From assembly GCA_902803315.1 (NCBI GenBank), contig CADCPM010000085.1:35-64034 (forward strand): a DNA stretch of 64,000 nucleotides, read 5' to 3'. Source of the stretch: an uncultured Coriobacteriaceae bacterium (GTDB taxonomy: Bacteria; Actinomycetota; Coriobacteriia; Coriobacteriales; Atopobiaceae). Each line of letters starts with the position of its first letter. The stretch's first letter is position 1. This document shows, piece by piece, positions 765 through 61,993 of this stretch. Both the position numbers and the translations under genes were made by a program. The notes under the pieces are model-generated. The model did not search any database and was not told the origin of the DNA. It saw nothing but the letters and a program-made list of their open reading frames with translations.

Positions 765-865
765 GTTCACATCCCCTCGCGCCCAGGATGCGGCCTGTAA
801 GCGGCGGCTCGCGAAACGGGCGCGGGGCCGCATGCGGTCCGGCGTTGGCGTGGGCATGGGGGTCG
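765..865 (+). repeat. Family-1 hairpin element, degenerate copy.
   Basis: The centre GCGGCGGCTCGCGAAACGGGCGCGG resembles the conserved core GCGGCGACTCACGAAGTGAGCGAGCG. It is flanked by GATGCGGCC / GGCCGCATGC and weaker outer complementarity. Confidence 0.4.
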
Positions 866-912
866 AGCGGCAACGAACGGAATAGCCAGTGCGAGAGAGT
901 GGTAGAGAAGGC

Positions 913-2586
913 ATGTCTTTTCTAACTATTGTCCAGTCAACCTTAAAACATAGCTGGGCTCGCGTCGTTGCGTGGCTTGTTACGACGTCGGCGTTGTGTG
1001 CCATACCGCTGGCCGCGGCCCTACTTTCTTCCGATGAAGCCCTCGCTCGTTTGGCGGGGGTGCATGCGGCCCTTGTGTTTGTGGGGGCATTCGTGGCGTG
1101 CCTGATTTTGTGTATTGTTGCCTTTGTCTGTTTGCGGTGCGTGGGTATCGTGCGGATTGCGTGGGCGAAGAAGCTGTTTGTGCCCACGTGGCTGGGCATT
1201 GGCATTCCCGCGTTGGTTATGCTTGTGTGCTGGCTGCCGTATTTGGTGGCGTTTGCCCCAGGTACCATGGGATGGGATACGGGGTTTCAGATCTCTCAAT
1301 GCTACCCAAACCACGGTCCGATTCTGAGTGTTCCTTGGAGTGCGACCAAAAGCTACGTGGACTGTATGTTCAGCGACCATCACCCTGTTTTTACCACGAT
1401 GGTATTTGGTCTCTTTGCGCTTGGGAGTGAGAAGCTCACCGGCTCTTGGAATATGGGTCTTACGATATATATTGCGCTGCAAGCCATCGCAATGAGCTTG
1501 TCGTTCTCGCTGCTGTGCATGTATATGCGCAGGATTGGGTGCCCCGCCTTGCTGTGCCTGGTTGCGCTTTGCTTCTTCTGTCTGTTGCCGCCCTTTGCCA
1601 TAAACGCGGCGACGGTCATAAAGGACACGCTCTTTTCGTGGGTCTTCGTGCTGTACTTCATTCTTATATGCGAGGTGGCGCGAACGCATGGGTTGGCGTT
1701 GGAGTCGAATCGCTTCCTCATCGCGCTCGTCGTTGCCACCGCTCTGATGTGCCTCACAAAGAAAACCGGATTGTATATAGTGTTGCCCACGGCGGTGATC
1801 TTTTGCATAGCGCTTCGTTCAAATGTGCTACGGATGCTCGCCCCCGCGATTGCGGCAGCCGTGCTTATGGTAATCGTTCTTCCAAGAGTGATATTTCCCC
1901 TCATAAACGCTATTCCAGGGGGGAAGCAAGAGATGTTGGGGACTCCCTTGCAACAAACGGCGCTCGTCGTCTTGCGTCATGGTGAGGAGTTGCCTGCCGA
2001 GGAGCGGGCGGCAATAGATGCCGTTGTGGACTACGGCAAGATTGGCGAGGCATATGACCCCACCTCCGTAGACCCGGTTAAGTTCTTGTATCGCTGGGAC
2101 AGTGCAACGAATGAGGATGTGCTGAGGTATGTGGGCACATGGGTGTCAGAGGGCACACGTTACCCCGGAGCCTATGTGAGAGCGGCTTGGGATCTGCTGC
2201 AACCGTTCTTCGACCCGTCGGCGCGCATGACGCTATACACGAGCGCTGGGGGGACCAAGGACAATGGTGACAAAACTTACTTTTTTGAGGCAACTCAGAG
2301 CCTGCGCGAGGCATTGTTGAAGTGCTACAGCGTTCTTTTGGAGCTGCCGGGAATCGGCTTCTTGTACAGCAATGCTCTCTACGCATGGGTCATTCCCGTA
2401 GCGGCTTTTATGAGCGTGTTGTTTTTCGATCGGAAGGCGGAGCTGATGCTCCCCTTTGTTCCCGTGGCGCTGGTAGTGCTCTCCGTCTTGTTGTCACCTG
2501 CGGCCTTGAGCAGGTATCTCTTCCCGCTTTTGTATACGGCGCCGCTGTTGGTGGGAGTTTCCCAGCGGGCAATCGCAAAGGAGTGA
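913..2586 (+). CDS. Large polytopic membrane protein, putative GT-C-like extracytoplasmic glycosyltransferase or polymerase (DUF6020-like; family assigned from memory).
   Basis: ORF 889..2586; the ATG at 913 is preceded by GAGAAGG. It has many TM segments. The loop motif 'LQQTALVVLRHGEELPAEERAAIDAVVDYGKIGEAYDPTSVDPVKF' is shared with the next gene. Confidence 0.65.
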   Translation: MSFLTIVQSTLKHSWARVVAWLVTTSALCAIPLAAALLSSDEALARLAGVHAALVFVGAFVACLILCIVAFVCLRCVGIVRIAWAKKLFVPTWLGIGIPALVMLVCWLPYLVAFAPGTMGWDTGFQISQCYPNHGPILSVPWSATKSYVDCMFSDHHPVFTTMVFGLFALGSEKLTGSWNMGLTIYIALQAIAMSLSFSLLCMYMRRIGCPALLCLVALCFFCLLPPFAINAATVIKDTLFSWVFVLYFILICEVARTHGLALESNRFLIALVVATALMCLTKKTGLYIVLPTAVIFCIALRSNVLRMLAPAIAAAVLMVIVLPRVIFPLINAIPGGKQEMLGTPLQQTALVVLRHGEELPAEERAAIDAVVDYGKIGEAYDPTSVDPVKFLYRWDSATNEDVLRYVGTWVSEGTRYPGAYVRAAWDLLQPFFDPSARMTLYTSAGGTKDNGDKTYFFEATQSLREALLKCYSVLLELPGIGFLYSNALYAWVIPVAAFMSVLFFDRKAELMLPFVPVALVVLSVLLSPAALSRYLFPLLYTAPLLVGVSQRAIAKE

Positions 2587-4475
2587 CTTTGTCGGCTTTG
2601 TCATATTATCGATTGAGCAGGGCGTGTCGTGCGGTAGTTTGCGTCCTGTGTGGAATTTTGGCCGTTGGTTCATTCCTTCTGTGCACGGTGGCACACGACT
2701 TCCCGTGGATTGACGAGGCGTATACCTTGCTAGACGGCTATGGGGTCGAACCCGCAGCACTTGCATTTGCGTTTGCATACGCGCTTTATCGGCTGATGTC
2801 GAAGCCTCGCGTGGAGCTCGCCAACACGCGCACGAGAGCATTGCTCGCCATAGCTTCCCTTGTCTTCGGCGTTTTGAACGTATGCGGCTGTAACATGGCA
2901 TATCTGGATTCCCTCATGATTTTTCACGGGACGTTTTGGACGCTCGTATTTTTGACGTGCATTGTTGGGTATGCGCTGCTGTTTCTTGTCGGCGCATCGT
3001 GGGGGCTTGTGTTGATGGCACGCTTTGGCTCGAGGGATGCCAAACCACAACCTGTGACGCCGAAGGTCTACCTGCTATGCGCGGCGGCGATTCTGCTCTG
3101 CTGGCTGCCGTGGCTCATCAGCTATTACCCCGCAACGGCCGACTTCGATTCCATGCGGCAAATCTGCACTGCCCTGGGAATCTTTCCCTTGAGCAATCAT
3201 GATCCGATTCTCTCGTCTTTGGCGATTGGCTCGGTTTTCAAATTGGGCAGCTCGATCGCGGGCGATAACTTCGGGCTGTTTCTCTTCGTGTTCCTGCGTG
3301 CAATAGCCATGGCGCTTATATACGCATATTGCATTGCGACGTTACACAGGCTGGGAGTGGGCAAGACGGCCGGCCTGCTCGTAATGCTGTTCTATGCGCT
3401 TACGCCGGTATGGGGTGCGTATGCGAAGCAGCCTTTCAAGGACACCTTTTCTGCCGCTCTGTTCTGCCTGTTCGCGGTACGTACAGTTCTTCTCGTGGCA
3501 GACATGAGAAAGGGCGAGGCACAGTTTCGGTCGTACGCGCTCTTTGCTGCCTCGGGGCTGCTCGTGTCGCTGTTTAGGCACAACTACTTCTATGTGTTTG
3601 TCTTTGCGGCCATTGTGGCTTCGGTTTCGCTCATACGTTACAAGGCGCCCGTGCCGGGCATTCCTGTACTTACGACCTGTGTGGTTATCTACGTGCTGTT
3701 CAATGCGTTTGTGGTAAACGTTTTGGGGGCCGAGTCTGGGCGTCCTGCCGAGGCGTTGGCGATTCCTTTGCAACAGACGGCGCGTACGGTGCGTGACCAT
3801 GGCACAAGCATGTCGGAAGAGGAGAGGGACGGCATACAAAGGCTGTTGGATTTCGACGCGCTCGGCAAAGTGTATGACCCCGTAATATCCGATCCTGTGA
3901 AGAACACGATTCCCAATACGGTTACCACGCAGGACTATCTCGCGTATCTTTGCTCTTGGTTTGCGCAGGGTCCGCGCTACCTGAAATCGTACGCGGAGGC
4001 GTTCTTTGCCGGAACGTACGGGTACTACGCCTTTACCGACGATGGATATCCCTCGGGCGGTAAGGGGAACTGCGGCATGGTTATTATTTCGGGCATCAAT
4101 ACGACTAACGAGACTTTTAACGAGACCTTTGACTTTAGCTACGTCGAAGGCCTGCATGGTCCGCGAGTGCTTTTGAAAACCTACTCTAACTGGTGGCACC
4201 GCACGCCTATCCTCAGCCTTACCGACACCATTGCTGCCTATACGTGGCTCATCGTAATCGTATGGCTCTACGTTGGGATGAGACGAAAGGGCCTTTGGGG
4301 TGCCGTGCCTGCTATGCTGCTCGTTGCGGTGCTTACCTGCGTTGCGTCGCCGGTGAATGGCAGCTTTAGGTATTTTGTGCCCATTGCCGCCGCTTCGCCA
4401 ACCTTGCTAGCGGTTGTTGTGCAAGCGACCGGCTGTAGTTCTGATGGCCCGCGTGAGGAAGGTAATGCCGCATGA
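2583..4475 (+). CDS. Paralogous large polytopic membrane protein (GT-C-like, DUF6020-like).
   Basis: ORF 2322..4475 overlaps the upstream gene. GTG 2583 overlaps that gene's TGA (GTGA), and an alternative TTG at 2589 lies 5 nt after AAGGAG. The paralogous motif is 'LQQTARTVRDHGTSMSEEERDGIQRLLDFDALGKVYDPVISDPVKN'. It has more than 10 TM segments. Confidence 0.65.
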   Translation: MTLSALSYYRLSRACRAVVCVLCGILAVGSFLLCTVAHDFPWIDEAYTLLDGYGVEPAALAFAFAYALYRLMSKPRVELANTRTRALLAIASLVFGVLNVCGCNMAYLDSLMIFHGTFWTLVFLTCIVGYALLFLVGASWGLVLMARFGSRDAKPQPVTPKVYLLCAAAILLCWLPWLISYYPATADFDSMRQICTALGIFPLSNHDPILSSLAIGSVFKLGSSIAGDNFGLFLFVFLRAIAMALIYAYCIATLHRLGVGKTAGLLVMLFYALTPVWGAYAKQPFKDTFSAALFCLFAVRTVLLVADMRKGEAQFRSYALFAASGLLVSLFRHNYFYVFVFAAIVASVSLIRYKAPVPGIPVLTTCVVIYVLFNAFVVNVLGAESGRPAEALAIPLQQTARTVRDHGTSMSEEERDGIQRLLDFDALGKVYDPVISDPVKNTIPNTVTTQDYLAYLCSWFAQGPRYLKSYAEAFFAGTYGYYAFTDDGYPSGGKGNCGMVIISGINTTNETFNETFDFSYVEGLHGPRVLLKTYSNWWHRTPILSLTDTIAAYTWLIVIVWLYVGMRRKGLWGAVPAMLLVAVLTCVASPVNGSFRYFVPIAAASPTLLAVVVQATGCSSDGPREEGNAA

Positions 4476-5673
4476 CGATTCAAGACATTTGGTCTCGGCT
4501 GCCCATTAGATCCCTTGCGAGAAATGCGCTGTTGCTGGTATGTGGGGTTCTCGTTGGCGTCCTGCTCTTGGTTTGTTCGTATGCGTTGCCCACAGGTCCC
4601 ATGCGCGAACACGTACTTCTTGAGGTTGACGACATCTGCTCTTCGAAGGAGGCGTTGCCCGGGCGTGCCAATGCGGGAAACGATGCAACCGACATGCAGA
4701 TGTTGGCCATTGCCGCCTCTGAGCTGCCAGAGGGCGAAGGGCTCCTAAAATGCGCAATGATGGCCCCTATCTCGTTCCTGCAGACCCTAACGTAACAATG
4801 ACGCAGGAGCAGATCCTGCGCGCCACCGTAGATCCCGAGGTGGAAGGGCGCTACGAGACCTATCCGCGCTATTGGCACGGCTACCTTGCGCTCCTTAAGC
4901 CGCAGCTGCTCGTGATGGACTACTACTCAATTCTAATGCTCAACGGCATGGCGTTGCTGTGCCTGCTCATTGCGTTCGTGGTGCTGCTCTTTCGTCACGA
5001 CCTGGGCCGGTTTTCGCCCGCATTCGTCCTTGCCTTTTTGTTGGGGTCGCCCGTTACCGTATCGCTCAACATGCAATACTACTCATGCGCGTACATAACG
5101 CTTCTGGCGCTCATTGCCTTGTTGGTGCTTTACGAGCGTGTGAAGTCAATGGACAAGGGCATGTTTGGCAGCATTTTCCTGCTTGTTGGCATGGTTACAA
5201 ATTACGTTGATTTTCTTACGTATCCCATTATGACGTTGGGGATGCCGCTTGCGCTCCTAGCGGTTCTTCAAAGAGACTCAAACCGATCGCTCGGGTCGTA
5301 TGTGGCAAATGCCTTGTGGTGGCTTGTCGGATACGGTGGCATGTGGGCCGCAAAGTGGGGCCTGAGCGCGCTCGTGCTTGGTCCCCAAACGTTGCAGGAG
5401 GTCGTCAACCAGGTAATTGTTCGAAGCTCGTCACAGGCGGCAACGGGCATTGGGGATATGAAGACGGAGCAGGCCGGAAGTCTGTCGTATTATGACGCTC
5501 TCTATGGATGTTGGGCCAGAATCGTTGGGGCAACGGCCCTACGCGTTCTGATTGGTCTGTTTGCCTTGGTAAACGTCGTGTATGTTCGGGCATACAAAGA
5601 CGGGAGAATGAATAAGGTTCCGGTTGGGCCGGTGCTTGCGCTTGTTTTTGCGGCCTTGTTGCCGTTTTTGTGA
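4472..5673 (+). pseudogene. Polytopic membrane protein gene split by a 1-nt frameshift. It is a paralogue of 7268..8584.
   Basis: ORFs 4472..4795 (frame 2) and 4750..5673 (frame 1) together align colinearly with the intact 438-aa paralogue. The alignment pairs '..KCAMMAP|YLVPAD..YPRYWHGYLALL' with '..GAVMCPYYRMPE..YFRYWHGYLSVL'. The frame switch maps to the C4 run at 4764-4767. The ATG at 4472 overlaps the upstream TGA (ATGA). Confidence 0.7.
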
Positions 5674-5800
5674 GTGTTCGTCTTGAAGAACCACACGTAC
5701 ATGTACTCCTACTTTGTCTACAGGATTTTTTTGGTAACAATTGCCGCGTTCGGTTGCATACCGCCCCTGCTGGTAAAAGATAGGAGCGCCACCGTCCGTG

Positions 5801-5883
5801 CCCCCGCGCCCGCCCCTCAAGCGGCGACTCACGAAGTGAGCGAGCGAAGCGAGCGCGGAGCCGTATGAGGGTTTGCGTGGGTA
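5801..5883 (+). repeat. Family-1 hairpin element (conserved core, imperfect arms).
   Basis: Core GCGGCGACTCACGAAGTGAGCGAGCGAAGCGAGCGCGGAGCCG at 5821-5863. Left arm CCCGCGCCCGCCCCTCAAGCGG and right arm CCGTATGAGGGTTTGCGTGGG are partly complementary. Confidence 0.75.
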
Positions 5884-5923
5884 TGGATGGCAACCTATGG
5901 ATGGCAACCTATGGATGGCAACT
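5882..5923 (+). repeat. Three tandem copies of the 14-bp unit TATGGATGGCAACC.
   Basis: Units at 5882-5895 and 5896-5909 are identical. The unit at 5910-5923 ends ..AACT. The array abuts the family-1 element at 5801-5883 and lies about 120 nt upstream of tyrS. Confidence 0.9.
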
Positions 5924-6043
5924 CGCAATTAACTCTATGCAGTCCAAAATGATGGAAATTGCGCGGACGCATCTGCTACCATGTAGCGTGCGCAATGGCC
6001 TAGGGCTAGTCGCGGAGGCATCGAAATACAGGAGGGCAGAGCG

Positions 6044-7261: not shown

Positions 7262-7267
7262 AACATC

Positions 7268-8584: not shown

Positions 8585-8586
8585 GT

Positions 8587-11064: not shown

Positions 11065-11191
11065 GTCGTGCATGTGGGATGGTTTTCAGATGGATAGCCT
11101 CTGTTGTGGTCGTGCAGTTTTGCATTGTCCTTATACACGGCGGCCATTTTGGGTAGCATCCTTAGGCATCGAATGTTTTTAGGAGGGCTTT

Positions 11192-20559: not shown

Positions 20560-20596
20560 TGTAAGGTGTCTCTGCCTTTTGCACGTCAAATCCCTG

Positions 20597-20736
20597 GTTA
20601 CGGTTCACGCCCCCCACGCCTACGACAGCACGCGTGCGGCGACTCACGAAGTGAGCGAGCGAAGCGAGCGTGGAGTCGCATGCGTGCTGACGTAGGCGTG
20701 GGGGGGCGCGAAGTGCGTGGGGATATGAACTGTAAC
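20597..20736 (+). repeat. Family-1 hairpin element with outer GTTACGGTTCAC / TGAACTGTAAC termini.
   Basis: Core GGCGACTCACGAAGTGAGCGAGCGAAGCGAGCGTGGAGTCGC. Arms are CGCCCCCCACGCCTACGACAGCACGC and GCGTGCTGACGTAGGCGTGGGGGGCG. The outer inverted termini are shared with the copy at 23906. Confidence 0.9.
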
Positions 20737-20848
20737 AATCCCTGTGGTGGCGTGCTGGAATCGCCGTAGTGCAATGGGTCTCGCAAGACGAGGGTGATAT
20801 AGTGACTCGGTAGGTTTTGCGTTGCCGACCGTGTGGAAGGCCTTGTCT

Positions 20849-21985
20849 ATGATTGATTTTAATATTGCGCCGTTCGTGGGGACGGAAACCGACTACATTC
20901 GCGAGGCCGTTGCCAACAAGATGATTTGCGGCGACGGTCCATTTACCAAGCGGTGTCACGCGTGGATGAGGGAACGCTTTGGGACGCCAAAGGCCCTCCT
21001 TACCACAAGTGGTACCTCTGCGTTGGAGATGGCTGCGCTTCTGTGTGACCTAGAGCCGGGTGATGAGGTTATCCTTCCCAGCTTTACGTTCTCTTCCACT
21101 GCGAACGCCTTCGTTTTGGCTGGTGCCAAGCTGGTGTTTACGGACATTCGTCCCGACACCATGAACATCGACGAGAAGAAGATCGAGGCCGCAGTTACAG
21201 ATCGAACGAGGGCGATATGCGTCGTTCATTACGCTGGCGTAGCGTGTGAGATGGACGCCATTATGGAAATAGCCCAGAAGTACGGGCTCAAAGTGGTGGA
21301 AGACGCAGCACAAGGTGTGATGAGCTCCTACAAGGGTCGTGCGCTGGGAACCATTGGCGATTTTGGCTGCTTTTCGTTCCACGAAACGAAGAACTACTCC
21401 ATGGGTGAGGGAGGGGCATTCCTTACCAAGGAGGTGTCGTATGCCGAGCGTGCGGAGATTCTGCGCGAGAAGGGTACCGATAGGTCCAAATTCCTGCGCG
21501 GACAGGTTGACAAGTACACGTGGCAGGACTACGGCTCGAGCTACCTTCCGTCCGATATAAACGCCGCCTATCTGTGGGCGCAACTTGAGAAGGCTGACGA
21601 GATAAATGAGAACAGGCTCGCGTCGTGGAATGCCTACGACGCCGCGCTGCGACCGCTTGCGGAACGCGGATTGGTGGAGCTTCCCACCATCCCCGCGGAG
21701 TGTGTGCACAACGCCCATATGTATTGGCTCAAGGCAGCCGATCTGGACGAACGTACACGGCTCATAGCGCATCTCAAAGCGTGTGGAGTGCAGGCGACGT
21801 TCCACTACATCCCGCTTCACTCGGCGCCTGCCGGGCTGAAGTTCGGGCGCTTTGCTGGAGAAGACGAGTTCACGACGCGGGAGAGCAATCGTCTCCTGCG
21901 CTTACCCATGTACTACAACCTCGCAAAAGGCGACCTTTTGCATGTGATTGACGCGATCTACGAGTTCTACGGAGTCTTACGATGA
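20849..21985 (+). CDS. wecE: dTDP-4-amino-4,6-dideoxygalactose (Fuc4N) transaminase, DegT/DnrJ/EryC1 family.
   Basis: The match to my recollection of E. coli WecE is colinear and high-identity. Segments seen: 'MIDFNIAPFVGTETDYI', 'CGDGPFTKRCHAWMRERFG', 'VVHYAGVACEMDAIM', 'FSFHETKNYSMGEGGA' (PLP Lys), 'REKGTDRSKFLRGQVDKYTWQDYGSSYLPSD'. Confidence 0.85.
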   Translation: MIDFNIAPFVGTETDYIREAVANKMICGDGPFTKRCHAWMRERFGTPKALLTTSGTSALEMAALLCDLEPGDEVILPSFTFSSTANAFVLAGAKLVFTDIRPDTMNIDEKKIEAAVTDRTRAICVVHYAGVACEMDAIMEIAQKYGLKVVEDAAQGVMSSYKGRALGTIGDFGCFSFHETKNYSMGEGGAFLTKEVSYAERAEILREKGTDRSKFLRGQVDKYTWQDYGSSYLPSDINAAYLWAQLEKADEINENRLASWNAYDAALRPLAERGLVELPTIPAECVHNAHMYWLKAADLDERTRLIAHLKACGVQATFHYIPLHSAPAGLKFGRFAGEDEFTTRESNRLLRLPMYYNLAKGDLLHVIDAIYEFYGVLR

Positions 21986-23889: not shown

Positions 23890-23905
23890 GGGTTGACGTG
23901 AGGCC

Positions 23906-24025
23906 GTTACAGTTCACACCCCGCGCCTGTGTCCGGACCGCAAGCGGCGACTCACGAAGTGAGCGAGCGGAGCGAGCGCGGAGTCGCACGCGGGACCGGC
24001 GAAGGTGCGGGGTGTGAACTGTAGC
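23906..24025 (+). repeat. Family-1 hairpin element with outer GTTACAGTTCAC / GTGAACTGTAGC termini.
   Basis: Core GGCGACTCACGAAGTGAGCGAGCGGAGCGAGCGCGGAGTCGC. The outer 14 bp, AGTTCACACCCCGC / GCGGGGTGTGAACT, are perfectly complementary. The inner arms carry internal loops. Confidence 0.9.
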
Positions 24026-24063
24026 GTGGGGCCTTATAAGGGCAAGCGAGGAAGGACGTCACA

Positions 24064-24818: not shown

Positions 24819-25847
24819 ATGGGTAAGTTCTACGACGCCGACCTTACTTCGATTGCACAGGATAACTTGGTGCCTTGGTCGGTCTTCGAGGGTGCGACGG
24901 TAGCCGTTACGGGCGCGACGGGTCTCGTTGGCAGCATGGTTGTGCGAGCGTTGCTTCGGCGGTGCGAGGTGGCAGTAGGTCCCGCAAGGCTGGTGCTGCC
25001 CGTTCGCAATTTGGAGAAGGCGCGCACACAGTATGGTTCGTATTCCAGTGTTGAACTCGTAGAGTGGGATGCAGCCTTAGGGGAGGCGCCTCGCATTGAG
25101 GGCAATTGCGACTACGTGGTGCACTGCGCAAGTAACACCGACAGCAGACTCATGGTCGAAAGGCCGGTAGACACCATCGAAGCCACAGTGGAAGGCACTC
25201 GCGCAATGCTTGAGCTTGCGCGCTCTACCGGGACACGCATGTGCTTTGTGTCCTCTATGGAGGTATATGGATCTGGCTCTGCCGACCCGTTGGACGAGAC
25301 ACGCGGCGGCGAGTTGGATGCCATGAGCGTGCGGAGCAGCTATCCGCAGGCCAAGCAGCTGGCCGAGACGCTCTGCGCCTCCTATGCCTCGCAGTATGGG
25401 GTTCGCGTGTGCGTCGCTCGACTTGCCCAATCGTTTGGCCCAGGCATCGCAAACACCGACAAACGCGTATTTGCCGAGTTTGCCCGTTGCTGCGAGCGGG
25501 GCGAGGACATTGTCCTGCTAACCGATGGGTCAAAGAGCAACATGTACGTATACATAGCAGATGCCGTGAGGGCGCTCCTGCTGCTTGTTGCATGTGGTGA
25601 GTCCGGAGAGGCATACAACGTGGCAAACGAGCAGACGTTCTGCTCGATATGGGAGATGGCCAACATGGTGGCTGGCGCCTTTGGCCCGCATACCAAGGTC
25701 ACGAGGGTTAAGGATCTAAATGCGGCCAAGCGCTTTGCCGTGGCTGGGTGCCTGCGACTCAACACCTCCAAGATCCGTGCCTTGGGCTGGGAGCCCAAGG
25801 TAGGGCTCGAGGACATGTATCGTCGCATGATGGCGGACTGGAAGTAA
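24819..25847 (+). CDS. NAD(P)-dependent epimerase/dehydratase-family SDR (possible reductase partner of the cytidylyltransferase).
   Basis: Rossmann motif 'VAVTGATGLVGSMVVRAL', 'YPQAKQLAE' (YxxxK), 'VVHCASNTD'. The ATG at 24819 follows GGGGGA. Confidence 0.8.
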   Translation: MGKFYDADLTSIAQDNLVPWSVFEGATVAVTGATGLVGSMVVRALLRRCEVAVGPARLVLPVRNLEKARTQYGSYSSVELVEWDAALGEAPRIEGNCDYVVHCASNTDSRLMVERPVDTIEATVEGTRAMLELARSTGTRMCFVSSMEVYGSGSADPLDETRGGELDAMSVRSSYPQAKQLAETLCASYASQYGVRVCVARLAQSFGPGIANTDKRVFAEFARCCERGEDIVLLTDGSKSNMYVYIADAVRALLLLVACGESGEAYNVANEQTFCSIWEMANMVAGAFGPHTKVTRVKDLNAAKRFAVAGCLRLNTSKIRALGWEPKVGLEDMYRRMMADWK

Positions 25848-25887
25848 CGCGGCGAGTCGGTTTGGGGCTTCCCTAAGGTCGGATGTG

Positions 25888-25920
25888 ACCCACAGCGCAG
25901 TGCACCGCGCTGTGGGTTTT
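25888..25920 (+). terminator. Rho-independent terminator after the SDR gene.
   Basis: 11-bp stem ACCCACAGCGC / GCGCTGTGGGT with an 8-nt loop, followed by TTTTGTGT. It lies 41 nt after the stop at 25847. Confidence 0.75.
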
Positions 25921-36265: not shown

Positions 36266-36320
36266 ATAATGAATTGTCTCCCGGTAGGGCTCATGGCGCT
36301 ATCTCGAGGCGATGGGCTGC

Positions 36321-36438
36321 GCGCTTGCTCACGCCACGGGCCCGCTTCGGCCAGCATGCAGCTCCGCGCTCGCTCCGCTCGCTCACTTCGTGAGTCGCTG
36401 CATGCGGGCCGAAGCATGCCCGTGGCGTGAGCAAGCGC
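36321..36438 (-). repeat. Family-1 hairpin element (core on the minus strand).
   Basis: The plus strand reads GCTCCGCGCTCGCTCCGCTCGCTCACTTCGTGAGTCGC. The arms GCGCTTGCTCACGCCACGGGC...GCATGCAGC and GCTGCATGC...GCCCGTGGCGTGAGCAAGCGC include a perfect 21-bp outer stem. Confidence 0.9.
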
Positions 36439-36508
36439 CCCGTGCCGCCTCGCAGGCTCGGGGGTGTGAGCGGCAACGGTGTGCGAGCGTTGGAGGTGCA
36501 AGGCAGTT

Positions 36509-44780: not shown

Positions 44781-44878
44781 GATTCTCCTTCTGAAAACAT
44801 TCAGCTTTGTAGCGTTCCATAGTTTATCGCAATTTGAATTGTTTGGCCAAACTTGGAATGAGTCTTTGAGTTTGGTCG

Positions 44879-44981
44879 CCCATGCCTCGCGTCCGTGCCG
44901 CCCCGCATGCGGCGACTCACGAAGTGAGCGAGCGAGGCGAGCGCGGAGCCGCATGCGGGCTGGGCGGACGCGGGGCATGGG
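44879..44981 (+). repeat. Family-1 hairpin element.
   Basis: Core GGCGACTCACGAAGTGAGCGAGCGAGGCGAGCGCGGAGCCGC. The arms are CCCATGCCTCGCGTCCGTGCCGCCCCGCATGC and GCATGCGGGCTGGGCGGACGCGGGGCATGGG. Confidence 0.9.
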
Positions 44982-45185
44982 CGAGCAAGGTGAGCGCAGG
45001 GTCGCATGCGGGGTGACGTGGACACGAGCGCGGAACTGCATACGAAGCGACGTGCCTGTACAAACAGGCCTCCGTAATAGTGGGGATATGGACAGATGCG
45101 AATCTTTGAAATGGGAGCGCTAAAGAATATCCAAGATGCGTTAGCATACACTTGTGGCTAATGCGACCAGAAACGGAGATCAGTC

Positions 45186-47085: not shown

Positions 47086-47919
47086 ATGTTTCTCAATGAC
47101 TTGTATCACGCGCTTAACCCAGTCGCATTTGCGATTGGGCCCTTTGTGGTGCGGTGGTATGGCATAGCGTATCTCGCTGGCTTTATCTTGGGCGGCATTC
47201 TGCTGTATAGGGTCGCTCGCAGGTGGAAGCTCGACCTTACGAGTGACGACGTGCTTAGCATTATGACGGGTATTTGCCTGGGAATCGTGTTGGGCGGACG
47301 TTTGGGATACGTGCTGTTTTACGGCGCTGGCTACTACCTTGCCAATCCGTTGCAAATCTTTGCCATCAACGAGGGCGGCATGAGCTTCCATGGCGGCCTC
47401 ATAGGTGCTGTGGTGGGCGGCTCGATTGTGTGCAAGCAATGCGGAATATCCATTCCCACCATATGTGACCTCGGCGCCATCGTCACGCCAGTGGGACTGT
47501 TTTTTGGAAGATGCGCCAACTTCATTAACGGTGAGCTGTGGGGGAAGGAGACAGATCTCCCCTGGGGCGTCATGTTCCCAACGGGCGGTAACGTGTACCG
47601 CCATCCGTCGCAGCTCTACGAGGCCGTGCTGGAAGGGCTGATTATGTTTGCCATCCTGTGGGCGCTGTCTCGTAAACTGCCGCCGCGACCGCAAGGGACG
47701 TTTATGGGCGTCTTTCTTGCCTGGTATGGCATCGCGCGCATTCTGGTTGAGTTCGTGCGGGTGCCAGACTCTCAGCTTGGTTACCTGTTTGGCGGCGTCG
47801 TAACCATGGGACAGATACTGTCGCTTCCGCTGGTGATCGGTGGCGTGGCGCTGCTCGTGTGGGCACACAAGATGCAAAGACCGCAAGTCGGGCATCTGGA
47901 AGAAAAGACACAAGATTAG
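47086..47919 (+). CDS. lgt: Prolipoprotein diacylglyceryl transferase.
   Basis: 'FAIGPFVVRWYGIAYLAGFILG', 'GGMSFHGGLIG', 'GRCANFINGELWGKETDLPWGVMFP', 'RHPSQLYEAVLEG'. Confidence 0.95.
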   Translation: MFLNDLYHALNPVAFAIGPFVVRWYGIAYLAGFILGGILLYRVARRWKLDLTSDDVLSIMTGICLGIVLGGRLGYVLFYGAGYYLANPLQIFAINEGGMSFHGGLIGAVVGGSIVCKQCGISIPTICDLGAIVTPVGLFFGRCANFINGELWGKETDLPWGVMFPTGGNVYRHPSQLYEAVLEGLIMFAILWALSRKLPPRPQGTFMGVFLAWYGIARILVEFVRVPDSQLGYLFGGVVTMGQILSLPLVIGGVALLVWAHKMQRPQVGHLEEKTQD

Positions 47920-47928
47920 GAACAGGTC

Positions 47929-47998
47929 CCAACTAAGGGACAGTCCCCAAGTTATGGCTTGCGTTTAAACCATAACTTGGGGACTGTCCCTTAGTTGG
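47929..47998. repeat. Family-2 palindrome, extended nested form (putative bidirectional terminator).
   Basis: CCAACTAAGGGACAGTCCCCAAGTTATGG-CTTGCGTTTAAA-CCATAACTTGGGGACTGTCCCTTAGTTGG has 29-bp arms, each containing the GGGACWGTCCC mini-palindrome. It lies between the convergent genes lgt and deoC. Confidence 0.85.
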
Positions 47999-48007
47999 CG
48001 TTGAGCG

Positions 48008-48718
48008 TTAGTTCTGGCGAGAGAGCTGCTCGAAGATGCTTACGCTGGCAGAGCAACCAATGCGGTCTACCCCTGCGTCCACGAAGGCGAGGAACTCCTC
48101 GGGCGTGCGGATACCGCCGGCGGCCTTGACCTTTACGGCGGGGTCGGTGTTATTGCGCATTAGCCTTATGTCGTCGAGCGTGGCACCGCCTGTGCCAAAG
48201 CCCGTGGAGGTCTTTATGAAGTCGGGGCGAACCTCGCTGGCCAAATGACAGAGCGCGATCTTCTCTTCGTCGGTAAGGTAGCAGTTCTCGAAAATGACCT
48301 TGCACGTTATGGGATCGCTTGCCCCGCGCATTCCGCCGCCGCGACCCTCGTGGCAGAGCGACACGATGCTTTCCATCTCCTCGCGCACGTAGTCCCAGTC
48401 GCCGTTCTTTACCTCGGTGAGGTTAACGACGTAGTCGATCTCGTCGGCGCCGCACTCAATGGCGTCTCGCGTCTCCTGCACCTTGGCATAGATGCTGGTT
48501 TGTCCCAGCGGAAACGATATGGCCGCGCCTACGTGCACGTCGGTGTCCTTGAGCAACTCATGACAAAACCGTGCCTGGACTTGGTTGACGGCCACCATGG
48601 CAAAGCCCCACGCCTGTGCTTCGTTGCACAGCAGCTGCATGTCTTGGTTGCTGGCGTCGGCGTGGAGGTTGGTGTGGTCCACGAGTTTGGCAAGTTGGGT
48701 AAGATCACGTGTTGGCAT
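48008..48718 (-). CDS. deoC: Deoxyribose-phosphate aldolase.
   Basis: 'LAKLVDHTNLHADAS', 'FIKTSTGFGTGGATLDDIRLM' (Schiff-base Lys), 'VKAAGGIRT'. ATG 48718 after AGGAAGG is preferred over GTG 48748. Confidence 0.9.
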   Translation of the reverse strand: MPTRDLTQLAKLVDHTNLHADASNQDMQLLCNEAQAWGFAMVAVNQVQARFCHELLKDTDVHVGAAISFPLGQTSIYAKVQETRDAIECGADEIDYVVNLTEVKNGDWDYVREEMESIVSLCHEGRGGGMRGASDPITCKVIFENCYLTDEEKIALCHLASEVRPDFIKTSTGFGTGGATLDDIRLMRNNTDPAVKVKAAGGIRTPEEFLAFVDAGVDRIGCSASVSIFEQLSRQN

Positions 48719-48769
48719 GCTTGTTCCTTCCTGTGTGGCCTGTGCCACTCCATGTTTGTGGATTGGGGG

Positions 48770-51722: not shown

Positions 51723-51733
51723 AACATGGTTAT

Positions 51734-52849: not shown

Positions 52850-52952
52850 GGTGCATCTTTCTTTATTAGTTATGCTGCGTTTGTCCCGCATTCTAGCATA
52901 AGGCGGGGCGCTTTTCGTTTGAGGGCCTTCGCTGGAAGGAGCTGCTCATAGC

Positions 52953-53038
52953 TCTCCGCCTGCGACGCGGCCCGCAAGCGGCTCCGCGCTCGCTCACTTC
53001 GTGAGTCGCCGCTTGCGGGCCGCGTCGCAGGCGGGAGA
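52953..53038 (-). repeat. Family-1 hairpin element, short-core variant (core on the minus strand).
   Basis: The plus strand reads GCTCCGCGCTCGCTCACTTCGTGAGTCGCC, with only one GCGAGCG unit. The arms TCTCCGCCTGCGACGCGGCCCGCAAGCGGC / GCCGCTTGCGGGCCGCGTCGCAGGCGGGAGA form 30 bp with one bulge. Confidence 0.85.
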
Positions 53039-53103
53039 GATGCGGAGGTAGGCGGGAGGGCATGAGCAGCAGCGATGAGGTCCGAAATACTCCATAAGCT
53101 GGG

Positions 53104-54336: not shown

Positions 54337-54615
54337 CCTCTACCTCCTTTGCTGGTAAAAGAAATATCATCTAATGGTAGGGCAAAAGCGAGCGACTCAT
54401 GGGATATCCACGACTTCGCGCGTTCAGGCGCCCAAAATCACGCTAATCGGCTTTGGCAAAGCGAAGAGGCGCAAATCGACACTTGCGGACTGAACTCTTA
54501 TGCCAGCCGATTAGTCGAACGAGGCCGCCAAGCATCAACTTGGGTCCAAAAATCCGCGAAACCACCTCAAAAAGAGCAGCTCGTGGTCCTATGTTGGAGA
54601 CGGCGCGATTGCGTC

Positions 54616-55077
54616 CTACTTCACTACCAGCGTGTCGCAGCCGGGAATGCGCGAGAGGAACGTGGATGTGGATCCCATGAGGGCATAGCGGAAGTTGGAG
54701 AGCCCCAACGCGCCGCAGATGATGAGGTCGGGCTTGATGACGTCTATCATCTCCTCGCGAATCGTCTCGCGTACGCGACCGATCTTTACCACGAGCTCCA
54801 CTTTACGGATTTGCGGCTCTTGCTCGGCCTCGGCAATCTGCGGTGCGATTCCCTCGCGGAAGCTCTTCTCGAGCGTGTCGAGCAACTCCAATGGATATGA
54901 TCCGACTGTGTCGAGAGACGTGGAGTCCACCACGTGGCCAATGTAGAGCTCGGCGTTGTTGTTTGCGGCAATGATGATGGCACGCTGAATCACAAGCTCC
55001 TGTTGTGGGGTGCCGTCAACGGCGACGAATATGCGGTCGTAGCCCAAGGACTGATAATTTGGCGCGGGAACGTTCAT
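54616..55077 (-). CDS. Universal stress protein (UspA family).
   Basis: 'YDRIFVAVDGTPQQELVIQRAIIIAANNNAELYIGHVVD', 'DLIICGALGLSNFRYALMGSTSTFLSRIPGCDTLVV'. The ATG at 55077 follows AAGGAGG. The longer ORF to 55257 is unsupported. Confidence 0.8.
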   Translation of the reverse strand: MNVPAPNYQSLGYDRIFVAVDGTPQQELVIQRAIIIAANNNAELYIGHVVDSTSLDTVGSYPLELLDTLEKSFREGIAPQIAEAEQEPQIRKVELVVKIGRVRETIREEMIDVIKPDLIICGALGLSNFRYALMGSTSTFLSRIPGCDTLVVK

Positions 55078-55153
55078 GCGTACCTCCTTTGTTGCTCTGC
55101 GGTAGTATTGTAACCCCGTATGCACGGGAGGCGGGGGCAATACGCCCAATGGC

Positions 55154-56068
55154 ATGGGTAAGAGGTTGGGAGTCGCGGTGGATTTTGTCGAACTGCTCAA
55201 GGCTGCGTTGTTTGGACTGGTTGAGGGTATTACGGAGTGGTTGCCCATTTCCAGCACCGGTCACATGCTACTGCTCAATGAGTTTGTGACCCTAAACGTG
55301 AGCAAAGACTTTTGGGATATGTTTTTGGTCGTGATCCAGCTGGGCGCAATTCTTGCCGTGTGCGTACTGTTTTTTCGCCAGCTCAATCCGTTTTCGCGCA
55401 AGAAGACGCCCGAGGAACGTCGTGGAACGTGGCGACTGTGGGCTCAGGTGGTGCTTGCCTGCGCTCCTGCCGCGATCATCGGCATACCTCTGGATGATTG
55501 GATGGAAGAGCACCTTGGCAGTCCGTTTGTTATTGCGGGCGCGCTCATTGTCTACGGCATCGCGTTTATTGTTATAGAGAACATGCGGTCGTCTGCGCCC
55601 ACGGGCGCGCACTTCGCGCGTAAAGGGAGCGTGGGGTCGCTTGGTCCCGACGAGAGCGCTCGAATACAACGGGTGCAGGACCTCGATTGGAAGACCGCCA
55701 TGGGCATCGGCGTCTTCCAGATTCTGTCCATCGTGCCAGGTACGTCTCGGTCGGGATCGACGATTATCGGTGGCCTGCTGCTGGGATGCTCTCGAGTAGT
55801 TGCTGCGGAGTTTACGTTTTATTTGGCTATACCCGTTATGGTGGGTGCGAGCGGCCTCCGTTTGGCGAAGTACTTTATTAAGGGGAACACCTTCACGACT
55901 GACCAGACGGCCGTGCTTGCCGTGGGCTGCATCGTGGCGTTTGTGGTGTCGTTGCTCGCGATTAGGTTCCTCATGAACTTTGTGAAGCGGCATGACTTCA
56001 AGCCGTTCGGATGGTATCGCATCGTATTGGGCATTGCCGTTATTGCCTACTTCCTGCTTGCGCGCTAA
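55154..56068 (+). CDS. uppP: Undecaprenyl-diphosphate phosphatase.
   Basis: '[20 protein letters not shown]', '[23 protein letters not shown]'. An alternative GTG start lies at 55178. Confidence 0.9.
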
Positions 56069-56121
56069 GTGATTGCTACGCTTGCATTTTGTGGGGCTCG
56101 GCTCGTTGGAGAGGGGAGACC

Positions 56122-57267
56122 GTGTCGTATTTCCTGTTTGCGTCGGATTCGTTTAAGGGCACGATCTCGTCTGCTCGCGCGGCGGAGCTGCTGGGCGATG
56201 CGGCTCGGGAGTTCTTTCCCGAGGCCAAGACGGTAGGACTTGAGGTGGCAGACGGCGGCGAGGGAACCGTGGACGCGATGGTTGCCTCCGCTGGCGGCTC
56301 CCTGTGCAGCGTGCGTGTGCACGACCCCCTTGGAAGGCAAATCAATGCGCGCTACGGCCTCCTTGGCGATGGGCGCGCCGTCATAGAGATGGCAGCGGCC
56401 TCCGGGTTGCCCTTGCTCGCTGCGGGCGAAAGGGATCCACGCGTTACGAGTACGTTTGGTACGGGCGAGCTCATACAAGATGCGCTCGACCGAGGCGTAC
56501 GTGACGTCTCGCTTGCCATTGGCGGCTCGGCTACCAACGACGGTGGAATGGGCTGCATGAGGGCGCTGGGCGCGCGCTTTTTGGATTGCGACGGAGACGA
56601 GTTGCGTGGCGTAGGGGAGGACCTCTTGCGTGTGGCTCGCATCGACCTTTCGTCCATGGACGCGCGGATCGCCCAGACGAGCTTTCACGTTATGTGCGAT
56701 GTGGACAATCCGCTTTTGGGCGAGCGGGGGTCGGCGTTTGTCTTTGCACCGCAGAAAGGCGCGAGCCCTGAGGTCGTTGAGGAGTTGGAGCGCGGAATGC
56801 AGTCCTACGCTCGAGTGCTCGAGCGCACGTTCGCTGGGTTTGACGCAATGGCGAGTGGCATGGGTGCGGCGGGCGGCTTGGGTGCCGCTGCATACGCCTT
56901 TTTGGGCGCCCGGCTACTGCCGGGCATCGAACAGGTACTTGATCTGCTGAACTTCGACGATCTGCTGAAGGGCTGCGACCTGTGCGTTACAGGCGAGGGG
57001 CATGCCGATGCGCAGTCTGCGCACGGCAAGGTGATCAGCGGCGTTGCGGCGCGCTGCCGTGCGGCAGGTGTTCCTTGCGTGGCTTTGGTGGGCGGCATGA
57101 ACGCCGATGCGTGCGAGCTCGAGGCGTGTGGGGTGGACGTGCTGATGCCTACCGTATTGGATGCCGGGCCACTAGAGCGGGTCCTCGAGCATGCGGAGCG
57201 CAACTATTCGCTTGCGGCGCGCCGACTTTTTGGGCTTATGCGGATTGGCACGAAGGTCGTCGAGTGA
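56122..57267 (+). CDS. Glycerate kinase.
   Basis: 'FLFASDSFKGTISSARAAELL', 'VADGGEGTVDAM', 'IGGSATNDGGMGCMRALG', 'VTGEGHADAQSAHGKV'. GTG 56122 follows GAGGGGAG. Confidence 0.85.
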   Translation: MSYFLFASDSFKGTISSARAAELLGDAAREFFPEAKTVGLEVADGGEGTVDAMVASAGGSLCSVRVHDPLGRQINARYGLLGDGRAVIEMAAASGLPLLAAGERDPRVTSTFGTGELIQDALDRGVRDVSLAIGGSATNDGGMGCMRALGARFLDCDGDELRGVGEDLLRVARIDLSSMDARIAQTSFHVMCDVDNPLLGERGSAFVFAPQKGASPEVVEELERGMQSYARVLERTFAGFDAMASGMGAAGGLGAAAYAFLGARLLPGIEQVLDLLNFDDLLKGCDLCVTGEGHADAQSAHGKVISGVAARCRAAGVPCVALVGGMNADACELEACGVDVLMPTVLDAGPLERVLEHAERNYSLAARRLFGLMRIGTKVVE

Positions 57268-57369
57268 GTTGGCGTTTTGCTATTCGTGCTCTTGGCTAAC
57301 AATACTGTCTTGCCAACGCGCTACAATCTATTCCCCAGCAAAACCGTTTCATACAGGGAGGACGCCCCT

Positions 57370-59760: not shown

Positions 59761-59794
59761 AGGGGGAGCCAGTTCCGGCGCGCGGCACAAGTAC

Positions 59795-60589
59795 GTGGAG
59801 GAATCGATGAACTCAGCCAACATGCAAGAGGCGGTCCTTGACATCTTTGGATTTAGTGTTCCCGCGGCTGTTATTAAGCTCGGGTTTTTGGTTGCCGTGA
59901 TAATAGTGGCCTTTGTGGTGGACCGCTTGCTCACCAAGGCGCTGCGAAGCGTCTTGGATCACGCAAGCGTGCCGTCTGCCTCCATTTTTGTGAACATAGC
60001 GCGCGTCGTGGTGTGGGTGTTTGCCATGCTTGCGGTGTTGCAACCAGTTTTTGGAATCGAGCCAACGGGATTTGTGGCAGCCCTGGGCGTCACCTCAATC
60101 GCGCTCTCGCTTGGCATGCAGGACACCATAGCGAACGTCTTCGGCGGGCTGACCCTTATGGTGGGCAAGGTCATCGTGCCGGGAGACATCGTTACCATTG
60201 GGACACTTACCGGCGAGGTCACAGACATTAACTGGCGCTCAACCACGCTTAAGCTCTTCAGCGGGGACATCGAGATCATCCCCAACTCGGTGCTCTCAAA
60301 GAAGGAGCTCACCAAACTCGCGCCGTTTCAGGCGGGGGAGTACAGGCTACCCATTATGATTAAGGTCGATGCTGATTTTGATCAGGTCCGCAAAGAGATA
60401 GAAGAGATTGCTCGTAGAACCCTGAACGAGTTCTACGACGAGGAGTTCGGTGCGCCGCTGTTCGTCGAGCAAATAACCAACTTTGGCGTTATGGCGCACG
60501 TGTCGCTTCACGCAAAGCCAGGCATTACTCCCAGACGAGCCTGTACGGCCGTGGCCAAGGAGATACTTGGCAAGGACTGGCTGGCGTAA
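59795..60589 (+). CDS. Small-conductance mechanosensitive channel (MscS family).
   Basis: 3 TM segments, then 'LSLGMQDTIANVFGGLTLMVGKVIVPGDIVTIGTLTGEVTDINWRSTTLKLFSGDIEIIPNSVL'. Confidence 0.8.
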   Translation: MEESMNSANMQEAVLDIFGFSVPAAVIKLGFLVAVIIVAFVVDRLLTKALRSVLDHASVPSASIFVNIARVVVWVFAMLAVLQPVFGIEPTGFVAALGVTSIALSLGMQDTIANVFGGLTLMVGKVIVPGDIVTIGTLTGEVTDINWRSTTLKLFSGDIEIIPNSVLSKKELTKLAPFQAGEYRLPIMIKVDADFDQVRKEIEEIARRTLNEFYDEEFGAPLFVEQITNFGVMAHVSLHAKPGITPRRACTAVAKEILGKDWLA

Positions 60590-60603
60590 TCGCACAAAGG
60601 AAG

Positions 60604-61800
60604 ATGGCAAAACGCCGTGTGCCTTGCGCGTTTTGCCAAGACTACAGAAGGAAACTCATGGCAAAGAAGCCCCTCTCGCCAACGGCAGGTCAGGACGTCG
60701 CGCGCTATATTCGTGAGCACCTGGGCGAAACCATGCGCTACACGACGCTCGACGAGCTGTGTGGCACCACCAGCAGCAACCAGCAATACCTTATTGTGGG
60801 GCCACTGGTAAAGGACGGAGTTTTGCGGGTTTGTCAACGCAAGCTCATAAGGGGCAACGACGACGCGCCCATATACCGCTCGTACCACATCTGCAAGCAG
60901 CTGCCTCAGAATCTCACGCACTCCGCGGCATTTATGGTAGGCGGCGCAAACATGGGCGTGCTCGATCCGGAGGTTGCCGACCTCAACCCCTTGCTTACCG
61001 AGAACGGCTTCCTGTACAAAAACCTTGACGCCGCAAAGGCCTGGCACGACGAACTGCTGCTCTTTGGCGCGTGGCTGGATACCCAAGACGGCGACTTGTC
61101 TCCCGCGATCATAGAGGAACGCTCCTTCGAGGTGTTTCACAACGAAAAGCTGCTGGGCAACAAGGACGACCGTCGCGGTGGTAGGACATTAATGGAGCTC
61201 ATAAACAACCTGGGCCTTGCCCCGAGGCTGCGTTTGCAGGAGGACGTGCGGCAGGAATTGGTGTACTACGTTCCGCGTACGATGCGCAGGGTCCTATCCA
61301 TACTGGTGGTGGAGAATCACGCCCCCTTTGTCCATGTGCAGGAAGCACTTAAGCGAGGCGTTCGCTCCATCTTCGGGCGCCGTGTGGATGGCGTGGTATA
61401 TGGCCGAGGGTTCGGCATTCTTTCGGGGAATGCGCTGTGCGCAACCGAGGAACTGTTTTCCAACGGGTGTCATGTGCGCTATTGGTACTGGGGCGACATC
61501 GATCGCCCGGGAATCGAGGTGTATGAGCGCCTTGCGGAGGAATATGACATACATCCGCTGGTACCCGCGTACCAGGCAATGATTGAGCATGCGGGAGAAG
61601 ACCTGCCCGCCTCTACCGACGAGCGACTGCCGCCTCGCATGGGCGTAGACATTGCCGCGGAGCTGGACAAGGGCGAGCTTGAGGTGTTCATGCGCGTCAT
61701 TGCGGGTTGCTTGCGGATCCCGCAGGAAGCCGTTCCGCCGTCCCTGTATGATGGCTCGGGCGGTACCAAGCGCCTGGCGCTTACCCTGCGCAAACGCTGA
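60604..61800 (+). CDS. Orphan JetD-like protein (DUF2220 Toprim-like C-terminal domain). No JetABC partners are present in the window.
   Basis: 'LSILVVENHAPFVHV' carries the Toprim acidic E, and 'VRYWYWGDIDRPGIEVYERL' carries DxD. An upstream segment, 'IEERSFEVFHNEKLLG', resembles the JetD N-terminal arm. The ATG at 60604 follows AAAGGAAG. Confidence 0.55.
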   Translation: MAKRRVPCAFCQDYRRKLMAKKPLSPTAGQDVARYIREHLGETMRYTTLDELCGTTSSNQQYLIVGPLVKDGVLRVCQRKLIRGNDDAPIYRSYHICKQLPQNLTHSAAFMVGGANMGVLDPEVADLNPLLTENGFLYKNLDAAKAWHDELLLFGAWLDTQDGDLSPAIIEERSFEVFHNEKLLGNKDDRRGGRTLMELINNLGLAPRLRLQEDVRQELVYYVPRTMRRVLSILVVENHAPFVHVQEALKRGVRSIFGRRVDGVVYGRGFGILSGNALCATEELFSNGCHVRYWYWGDIDRPGIEVYERLAEEYDIHPLVPAYQAMIEHAGEDLPASTDERLPPRMGVDIAAELDKGELEVFMRVIAGCLRIPQEAVPPSLYDGSGGTKRLALTLRKR

Positions 61801-61890
61801 GTACCGGCAAAGATGCTGCTGTCACAACCCTTCTAAAAGCGAGCGAAGCGAGCACCAGCTTAGCCTACGACGGAGTCGACCAACAGACGC

Positions 61891-61993
61891 CAGCGCGCGT
61901 GACGCGGCCTTGTCTCCATACGGCGAGTCGCGAAGCGTGGTGAGCGAAGCGAACGCCGAGCCGTATGGAGACAAGGCCGCGTCACGCGCGCTG
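61891..61993 (+). repeat. Family-1 hairpin element, diverged core with perfect 34-bp arms.
   Basis: The arms CAGCGCGCGTGACGCGGCCTTGTCTCCATACGGC / GCCGTATGGAGACAAGGCCGCGTCACGCGCGCTG are perfectly complementary. The loop GAGTCGCGAAGCGTGGTGAGCGAAGCGAACGCCGA resembles the core. A core fragment, AAGCGAGCGAAGCGAGC, also lies at 61838-61854. Confidence 0.7.

Follow-up and report, generated by a model that had tools for sequence, protein, structure and literature searches.

A probable family of miniature inverted-repeat elements with a conserved centre and covarying arms in uncultured ruminant-gut Atopobiaceae

Among short intergenic repeats of bacteria, the Correia elements (CREE) of Neisseria and the ERIC elements of enterobacteria are non-coding, 100 to 160 bp long, and present in tens to hundreds of copies. 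They have inverted-repeat ends, are accompanied by a target duplication, vary in presence or absence between strains, and form long hairpins when they are co-transcribed. The attC sites of integrons are imperfect palindromes of 60 to 140 bp in which structure is conserved more than sequence and which act as one folded DNA strand. REPINs carry compensatory stem changes and consist of two conserved terminal 16-mers separated by a variable spacer, with no target duplication (PMC3116915). Here, we describe a group of hairpin-forming loci in a 64,000-nucleotide stretch of DNA (the window; contig CADCPM010000085.1, positions 35 to 64,034, assembly GCA_902803315.1) from an uncultured Coriobacteriaceae bacterium of the family Atopobiaceae. 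A sequence-only reading of the window had listed eight intergenic hairpins with a near-invariant centre and had offered two explanations for them: (a) a single-stranded hairpin that presents a conserved head to some factor or (b) a head that inserts into pre-existing hairpins, or whose insertion creates an inverted duplication of the local flank. In our analysis, these loci are most probably copies of miniature inverted-repeat transposable elements (MITEs) that form one previously undescribed family and occur in a narrow clade of uncultured Atopobiaceae from the ruminant gut. The conservation pattern of this family is atypical for a MITE, in that a 40-nt centre (the head) is constant and the arms and ends covary.

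Insertion, architecture, and conservation of the element

Scanning the window with the 24-nt core GGCGACTCACGAAGTGAGCGAGCG at no more than one mismatch gave six matches, of which five were exact (5823+, 20638+, 23946+, 44911+, and 52987-) and one carried a single mismatch (36376-). Dinucleotide shuffles of the window gave none, and none is expected by chance. A covariance model built from an alignment of 25 copies and run over all 64 kb with filters off returned the eight loci of the sequence-only reading with scores of 117 to 36 bits; that list was complete and its strands were correct. It otherwise returned only two sequences, a palindrome (47913-48013) that does not belong to the family and a head fragment of 17 nt (61839-61855) that stands alone. 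The coordinates first given are exact for the copies at 20597-20736 and 23906-24025, but some full copies reach farther out, to terminal inverted repeats.

What moves is the entire element with its arms, and 8 bp of target are duplicated on insertion. For 14 copies whose ends are of the GTTACAGTTCAC type, the left and right 8-bp flanks were compared; they are identical at all eight positions in eight copies, at seven in three, and at six in two. In total, 13 of the 14 canonical-end copies match at six or more positions, compared to ~1% of mismatched left/right controls. An empty orthologous site for 23906-24025 is available in RGIG5826 (GCA_017545665.1), a metagenome-assembled genome (MAG) with ~86% DNA identity to the window. 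This site (locus L039) is clean and holds neither arm nor hairpin, and its length is that of the filled site once the element and one 8-mer are taken away. The duplications and the clean empty site together indicate that the element inserts whole, with staggered 8-bp cuts, and between related genomes it is present or absent as a block. For the copies that could be compared in this way, both forms of explanation (b) are therefore refuted, since the RGIG5826 site held no hairpin into which a head could have moved, and since an inverted duplication of the local flank does not agree with an empty site without an arm or with 8-bp duplications that lie outside whole elements.

The element is non-coding, 103-140 bp long, and palindromic around the asymmetric 40-nt head. 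When 92 copies are lined up, a common plan emerges, GTTACAGTTCACACCCC…GCGCC…GCCCGCAAGCG-head-ATGCGGGC…GGCGC…GGGGTGTGAACTGTAAC, in which the consensus terminal inverted repeats GTTACAGTTCACACCCC…GGGGTGTGAACTGTAAC are variable in older copies. Within the head, a CTCAC-GAA-GTGAG mini-hairpin precedes GCGAGCG-NA-GCGAGCG and CGGAGCCGC; an optional block of 9 nt corresponds to a single unit of the tandem repeat formed by AGCGAGCG plus A or C. In rare diverged heads, a compensatory change preserves the mini-hairpin as CTCGC-GAA-GCGAG. Variation within the head is greatest at the N of a second C-G-N-A-G motif, where the dinucleotide is AA in 62 copies, GA in 11, AG in six, CA in five, and AT in one. 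The head consensus is identical in three MAGs.

Outside the head, the sequence-only reading had called the arms mostly unrelated and the termini not conserved, and both statements need to be corrected. The arms are homologous, as an arms-only hidden Markov model (HMM) detects those of all window copies but one (7/8; E = 2.5e-6 to 0.8), and they end in a shared consensus, GTTACAGTTCAC…GTGAACTGTAAC. Genome-wide sharing of arm sequence, which that reading had associated with an ordinary MITE, is found in part, with arms that are similar between copies in RUG11733, another of the MAGs. The same reading was right that the centre is far more conserved than the arms. Across 60 full-length copies aligned to the covariance model, the per-site difference between copies in the arms is 29% in RUG11733, 47% in RGIG5826, and 49% in the window, and in the 40 head columns it is 2-10% across these three groups, so that the head is ~5-fold better conserved. 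Because head invariance in fetched loci is partly built in by the search, the figure that matters is that for the 17 head bases outside every search pattern, which differ at 4.5-16% per site.

The stems had been described correctly: copy 61891-61993 pairs 34/34, copy 36321 has a perfect outer stem of 21 bp, and the ~30-bp stem of copy 52953 is interrupted by one bulge. Folded as RNA, six of the window copies have z-scores of -8 to -13, copy 5801 has one of -3.7, and copy 765 one of -1.6. Along the stem of the 60 aligned copies, pairing is 90-96% beside the head, ~80-87% in mid-arm, and ~60-70% at the ends, and the mid-arm value occurs where sequence conservation is low. In the 25-copy alignment, 92.9% of stem cells are paired, compared to 80% in shuffles and 26-46% in slid controls, a percentage that is inflated because these seed copies were chosen for good pairing. 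Double changes are not inflated by this choice; they occur in 34 of 48 stem pairs (162 cells), which was matched by none of 500 shuffles. The arms thus covary, as had been proposed. Between nearest-neighbour copies, we counted 180 compensated double changes versus 162 one-sided changes, values that structure-guided alignment of the GC-rich, indel-bearing arms may inflate.

Copies in the window and their orthologous sites

The window, from scaffold_5 of ENA ERZ1049562, is largely a cell-wall polysaccharide or teichoic acid-type gene region plus rpsL-rpsG-fusA, with genes mostly on the plus strand and a positive GC skew in every 4-kb bin. All eight copies are intergenic. The flanking genes are co-oriented for five of them, with the element in the same orientation as the genes in each case, and divergent for the other three.

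The highest-scoring copy, copy 20597 (full element 20597-20736, plus strand; covariance-model span 20585-20732; 117 bits), has the ends GTTACGGTTCAC…ATGAACTGTAAC and lies within an 8-bp direct repeat of AATCCCTG (20589-20596 and 20737-20744), its target duplication. Against the orthologous copy in RGIG5826 (L039), the head shows 0/42 differences and the flanks 34/261, and the whole element differs by two substitutions and two matched run-length indels in 137 nt. A third lineage (L149/L150) carries at this site (L149 ~1610-1690) a 75-nt element from which the head and inner arms are gone, with perfect 16-bp ends, TACAGTTCACACCCCC…GGGGGTGTGAACTGTA, and the same right flank, AATCCCTG, as in the window. 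Since the upstream genes differ between the lineages, the shortened element sits at a recombination joint in the polysaccharide locus. Copy 23906 (full element 23906-24025, plus strand; covariance-model span 23894-24038; 113 bits) ends in GTTACAGTTCAC…GTGAACTGTAGC, and its flanks (span 23898-24033), GTGAGGCC and GTGGGGCC, are identical at seven of eight bases.

Copy 36321 (36321-36438, minus strand; covariance-model span 36306-36452; 116 bits) is located between divergent glycosyltransferase and LicD genes and is adjoined by a solo arm at 36451-36490. Divergent genes also stand on either side of copy 44879 (hairpin ~44876-44984, plus strand; covariance-model span 44858-45003; 116 bits), which has an extra partial arm at 45003-45030; at this site, an RGIG5826 contig breaks off within an element. 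Copy 52953 (minus strand; covariance-model span 52925-53063; 80 bits), between two minus-strand genes, is missing one 9-nt head unit, has the outer ends GCTGCTCATG…CTATGAGCAGC, and is absent from the orthologous region of RGIG5826.

The three remaining copies are altered to different extents. Copy 61891 (61891-61993, plus strand; covariance-model span 61871-62014; 85 bits), upstream of rpsL, is diverged and has an altered head, and the solo head fragment AGCGAGCGAAGCGAGC (61839-61855) lies upstream beside it. What survives of this copy in RGIG5826 is the right arm together with the head's 3' half, with the junction at a 16-nt direct repeat, and the right arm differs between the two genomes at about a quarter of sites (by eye). 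The stem in the window is perfect despite this divergence, which therefore indicates paired change in place. Copy 5801 (5776-5907, plus strand; covariance-model span score 89 bits) has an intact head (5822-5862) and left arm and a truncated right arm, directly 3' of which the 14-nt unit TATGGATGGCAACC is tandemly repeated 2.9 times (5882-5922); the GGCAAC within this repeat looks like a variant element end. Its orthologs are present in RGIG5826 and L161, and between the window and RGIG5826 the head differs at 2/41 sites, the left arm at 7/34 (the right arm being lost), and the flanks at 26/169. Copy 765 (747-887, plus strand; 36 bits), between co-oriented genes, is old and degenerate; a 13-nt deletion shortens its head, and both arms are still recognised by the arms-only HMM. 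Orthologs of this copy are found in RGIG5826 (L159 4280-4425) and L161, and these two differ at 0/39 sites in the head, 13/79 in the arms, and 1/68 in the flanks.

Overall, five of the seven comparable window sites are shared with RGIG5826 despite a 4-fold synonymous divergence of 0.25 (adjacent gene), and therefore many of the insertions are old. Three of the five shared copies have heads with no more than 2/41 differences from the consensus. These comparisons hint that heads evolve more slowly than the neighbouring DNA and arms at least as fast.

Further features were observed in and around these sites. The gene upstream of tyrS is called ~70 codons longer in L159 (8001-9437) and L161 (4971-6371), where it reads through the site-5801 element; its window ortholog (~4472-5673) terminates at 5673, with an apparent change of reading frame around 4750-4795. 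A glycerate kinase gene (56068-57268) is present in the window genome and not in RGIG5826, and an ~850-nt insert with a reverse-strand open reading frame (ORF) is found in RGIG5826 only (L039 6037-6947), opposite window positions 25843-25903. The palindrome returned by the covariance model, which is unrelated to the MITE family, is a perfect 29-bp inverted repeat (47929-47998, 48% GC) with a 12-nt spacer, of which the fold pairs three bases to leave a 4-nt loop. It lies between the convergent ORFs 47086-47919 (+) and 48008-48748 (-) and is possibly a terminator that acts in both directions or a small palindromic element of another kind. Within the family, tandem arrays of left arm plus head every 75-110 nt, as well as solo heads or arms, occur in element-bearing loci (L001, L006, L013, L021, L033, L037, L048, L050, L056, L058, and L161), which indicates that slippage or unequal recombination is frequent.

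The folded strand and alternative explanations

Several asymmetries distinguish the strand that carries the head from its complement. Arm mismatches on the head strand are more often of the G·T type than of the A·C type, both in sequence-only arm alignments (77 versus 37) and in the model alignment (141 versus 88), and the RNA-fold z-score is more negative on the head strand in 8/8 window copies. The head strand is the G-rich, presumed leading strand in 49 of 59 copies (83%). By crude ORF calls, elements between co-directional genes are co-oriented with them in 26 cases and opposite in four, and a further 19 copies lie between divergent and five between convergent genes; a co-oriented gene is located downstream of the element in 45 of 54 copies.

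The reading that we favour is a single-stranded hairpin in which the head is read by sequence and the stem by shape. The element would be moved by a DDE-type transposase encoded elsewhere, which would make the staggered 8-bp cuts, and the strand carrying GGCGACTCAC… would act as a folded single strand, either as lagging-strand template DNA or as read-through RNA. Some factor, possibly the transposase, a host protein, or a nuclease, would read the sequence of the head, while the arms would need only to pair. What keeps the arms paired may be selection on the hairpin, the copying of one arm from the other as the DNA is replicated (templated correction), or both. Explanation (a) of the sequence-only reading thus remains viable and gains some support from the strand asymmetries. 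A narrower proposal, in which the two C-GNA-G mini-hairpins make the 40-nt head a sequence-specific protein handle and the stem, termini included, is recognised only by shape, is speculative and in our judgment improbable. Two versions of it are possible: (i) structure-guided mobilisation that leaves the 8-bp duplication or (ii) a head domesticated by the host at many loci. If true, it would offer a natural example of a stem that drifts freely and corrects itself while displaying a ligand that stays constant.

A number of observations weigh against the interpretation of the loci as a MITE that acts as a folded strand: (i) the covariation counts rest on seed copies selected for good pairing. 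(ii) A transposase that reads duplex ends should keep the termini more constant than the centre, and the opposite is seen. (iii) No autonomous element with matching ends, and thus no partner transposase, was found in the window, in 161 loci (~1.4 Mb of fetched DNA), or in viral contigs; searches aimed at orphan arms and orphan ends, and at pairs of inverted ends that are separated by 0.5-4 kb and carry duplications, likewise gave nothing. (iv) In many RGIG5826-type copies, the outer ends vary and a target duplication is not detectable; either these copies are old or not all copies share one route of origin. (v) RNA and lagging-template single-stranded DNA (ssDNA) are inseparable here because gene strand and replication strand mostly coincide; a GC-skew test of transcription versus replication orientation had five informative cases, which were confounded and split 3:2. 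When a leading-strand mutation bias was considered as its source, the G·T excess was found to persist in the 10 lagging-oriented copies (24:12), where mismatches were possibly inherited from source copies, and it could alternatively stem from C-to-T deamination on an exposed single-stranded or non-transcribed strand. (vi) Orthologous copies supply only a small and mixed set of in-situ rates, from a region of mosaic ancestry.

One alternative, which would add to a MITE origin rather than replace it, is that the hairpin was exapted, i.e., kept by the host after insertion, whether as RNA (by stabilising the 3' or 5' part of an mRNA or serving as an RNase target, roles that have been proposed for REP, ERIC, and Correia) or through a head that is bound by a DNA- or RNA-binding protein. 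Selection at the level of the host would then conserve the head in each copy. We regard this as possible, though on balance unlikely. The persistence of five of seven sites in RGIG5826 at a 4-fold divergence of 0.25, with three of five heads near the consensus, is consistent with host retention, but even close species show a high turnover of copies, in that 23906 and 52953 are each confined to one lineage, copy 61891 is half-deleted, and L149/L150 are headless at site 20597. Likewise, the two substitutions in 137 nt of copy 20597 against 34/261 in its flank suggest constraint, yet the conserved 200-nt block at this site could be a recombination tract in a region of mosaic ancestry. At site 5801, the head differs at only 2/41 sites even though the right arm is lost, compared to 7/34 in the left arm and 26/169 in the flanks, and one head consensus is common to three MAGs; at sites 765 and 61891, however, the head has decayed. 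A role in transcripts would fit the 26:4 co-orientation with genes and the co-oriented downstream gene of 45/54 copies, but not as an intrinsic terminator, given that the sequences of copies 20597 and 23906 contain no U-tract. Intrinsic terminators were also rejected as an identity for the elements, as these two copies have no T-run after the right end and the loop region is ~40 nt (no terminator scan was run). A small ORF in the right arm and a promoter at the element ends were considered and rejected as well.

A second alternative needs no selection on structure: template-switching within the quasi-palindrome would keep the arms complementary, and gene conversion would keep the heads uniform. 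As a full account, we consider it unlikely. Copies far from the arm consensus that pair perfectly without intermediates (61891, with 34/34 pairs and a diverged right arm) argue for templated correction, as does a change in C-run length on one arm of the orthologous copy 20597 that has its G-run counterpart on the other. In very similar pairs of copies, double changes predominate (L047 versus L057: three double, one single), and the tandem and partial arrays, together with deletions at short direct repeats, show that slippage is frequent. However, correction between arms does not slow the head, so that the identical head consensus across species is left unexplained, nor would correction by itself be expected to yield more G·T than A·C mismatches. 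Gene conversion, in turn, depends on donor copies, and it has not repaired the heads that decayed at 765 and 61891.

It is very improbable that the family is a REP/REPIN-type element moved as ssDNA by a RAYT (Y1, IS200/IS605-like) transposase. C-GNA-G mini-hairpins are especially stable in DNA, and the element shares with this class its abundance as an intergenic hairpin and its tandem clusters; its orientation is biased toward one replication strand. Y1 transposases, however, make no target duplication, and 8-bp target duplications are present here. No RAYT-like gene was seen among the window genes examined, whose functions are cell-wall polysaccharide, ribosomal, and housekeeping, and no GTAG-type REP head motif was evident on reading the element consensus, for which no dedicated search was made. 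Compensatory stem changes occur as in REPINs, but there the terminal REP 16-mers are conserved and the centre is variable, the reverse of the pattern seen here (PMC3116915).

Explanation (b) is scarcely credible, since the arm diversity that suggested it at first sight proves to lie between homologous arms, the 23906-24025 site was empty of arm and hairpin, the duplications lie outside the arms, and the 75-nt headless element of L149/L150, which has the same ends and might pass for a hairpin that a head has yet to enter, can be aligned with the outer right arm of the window copy and is explained more simply as the product of a deletion.

Distribution and comparison with described systems

An exact head scan with one genome per species found at least 62 loci, and among the matches listed, only Atopobiaceae/Coriobacteriaceae MAGs from the ruminant gut carry the head (RGIG5826, RUG11733, and RGIG9633). 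Three Atopobiaceae/Coriobacteriaceae MAGs and the window together contribute more than 90 copies in 498 kb, and the window alone has eight in 64 kb. In contrast, 80 metagenome loci (794 kb) around orthologs of window positions 20822-21985, at ~70% amino-acid identity, contain no copy. The sequence-only reading had recognised no described family in the core, and this is supported for RNA and repeat families, as Rfam gave no match over the whole window at gathering thresholds, the consensus had no blastn match to plasmids, and nothing on the element family was found in the searched literature. A permissive E-value Rfam search at copy 20597 gave just sub-threshold matches to microRNA precursors (generic hairpins), and a tRNA scan of the window found none. 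In viral contigs, the head had no match and the end motif had two chance matches in coding sequence.

The family adds a repeat to a poorly studied gut lineage and may be of practical concern, as several of the examined MAG contigs begin or end inside a copy, and the family may thereby contribute to assembly fragmentation. Copies in and around cell-wall polysaccharide loci, whose gene content varies among relatives, may also mark recombination joints. The conserved head points to a putative factor that reads it, and the inverted conservation pattern provides a natural test of whether hairpin complementarity in mobile DNA is maintained by selection or by templated correction.

Among the described systems, attC sites resemble the element as imperfect palindromes whose structure is conserved above sequence. 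They differ in their ends, which are RYYYAAC 5' and GTTRRRY 3' in attC and, in reversed order, GTTAC 5' and GTAAC 3' in the element. An identity with attC was rejected because the copies stand singly between housekeeping genes with target duplications and not as a cassette array beside an integrase. With REPINs, the element has in common that it is a hairpin-forming miniature mobile DNA with tandem clusters, for which a single-stranded form (ssDNA or mRNA) is proposed; it differs in its conserved centre, variable ends, and 8-bp duplication. The likeness to Correia and ERIC extends to a short, non-coding, intergenic, multi-copy element with inverted-repeat ends, a target duplication, and presence or absence as a block. 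Its sequence and its host (Atopobiaceae) are unrelated to theirs, however, and it duplicates 8 bp where Correia duplicates TA. Unlike in those families, it is the asymmetric 40-nt centre and not the termini that is best conserved, and the arms, including their ends, covary around it.

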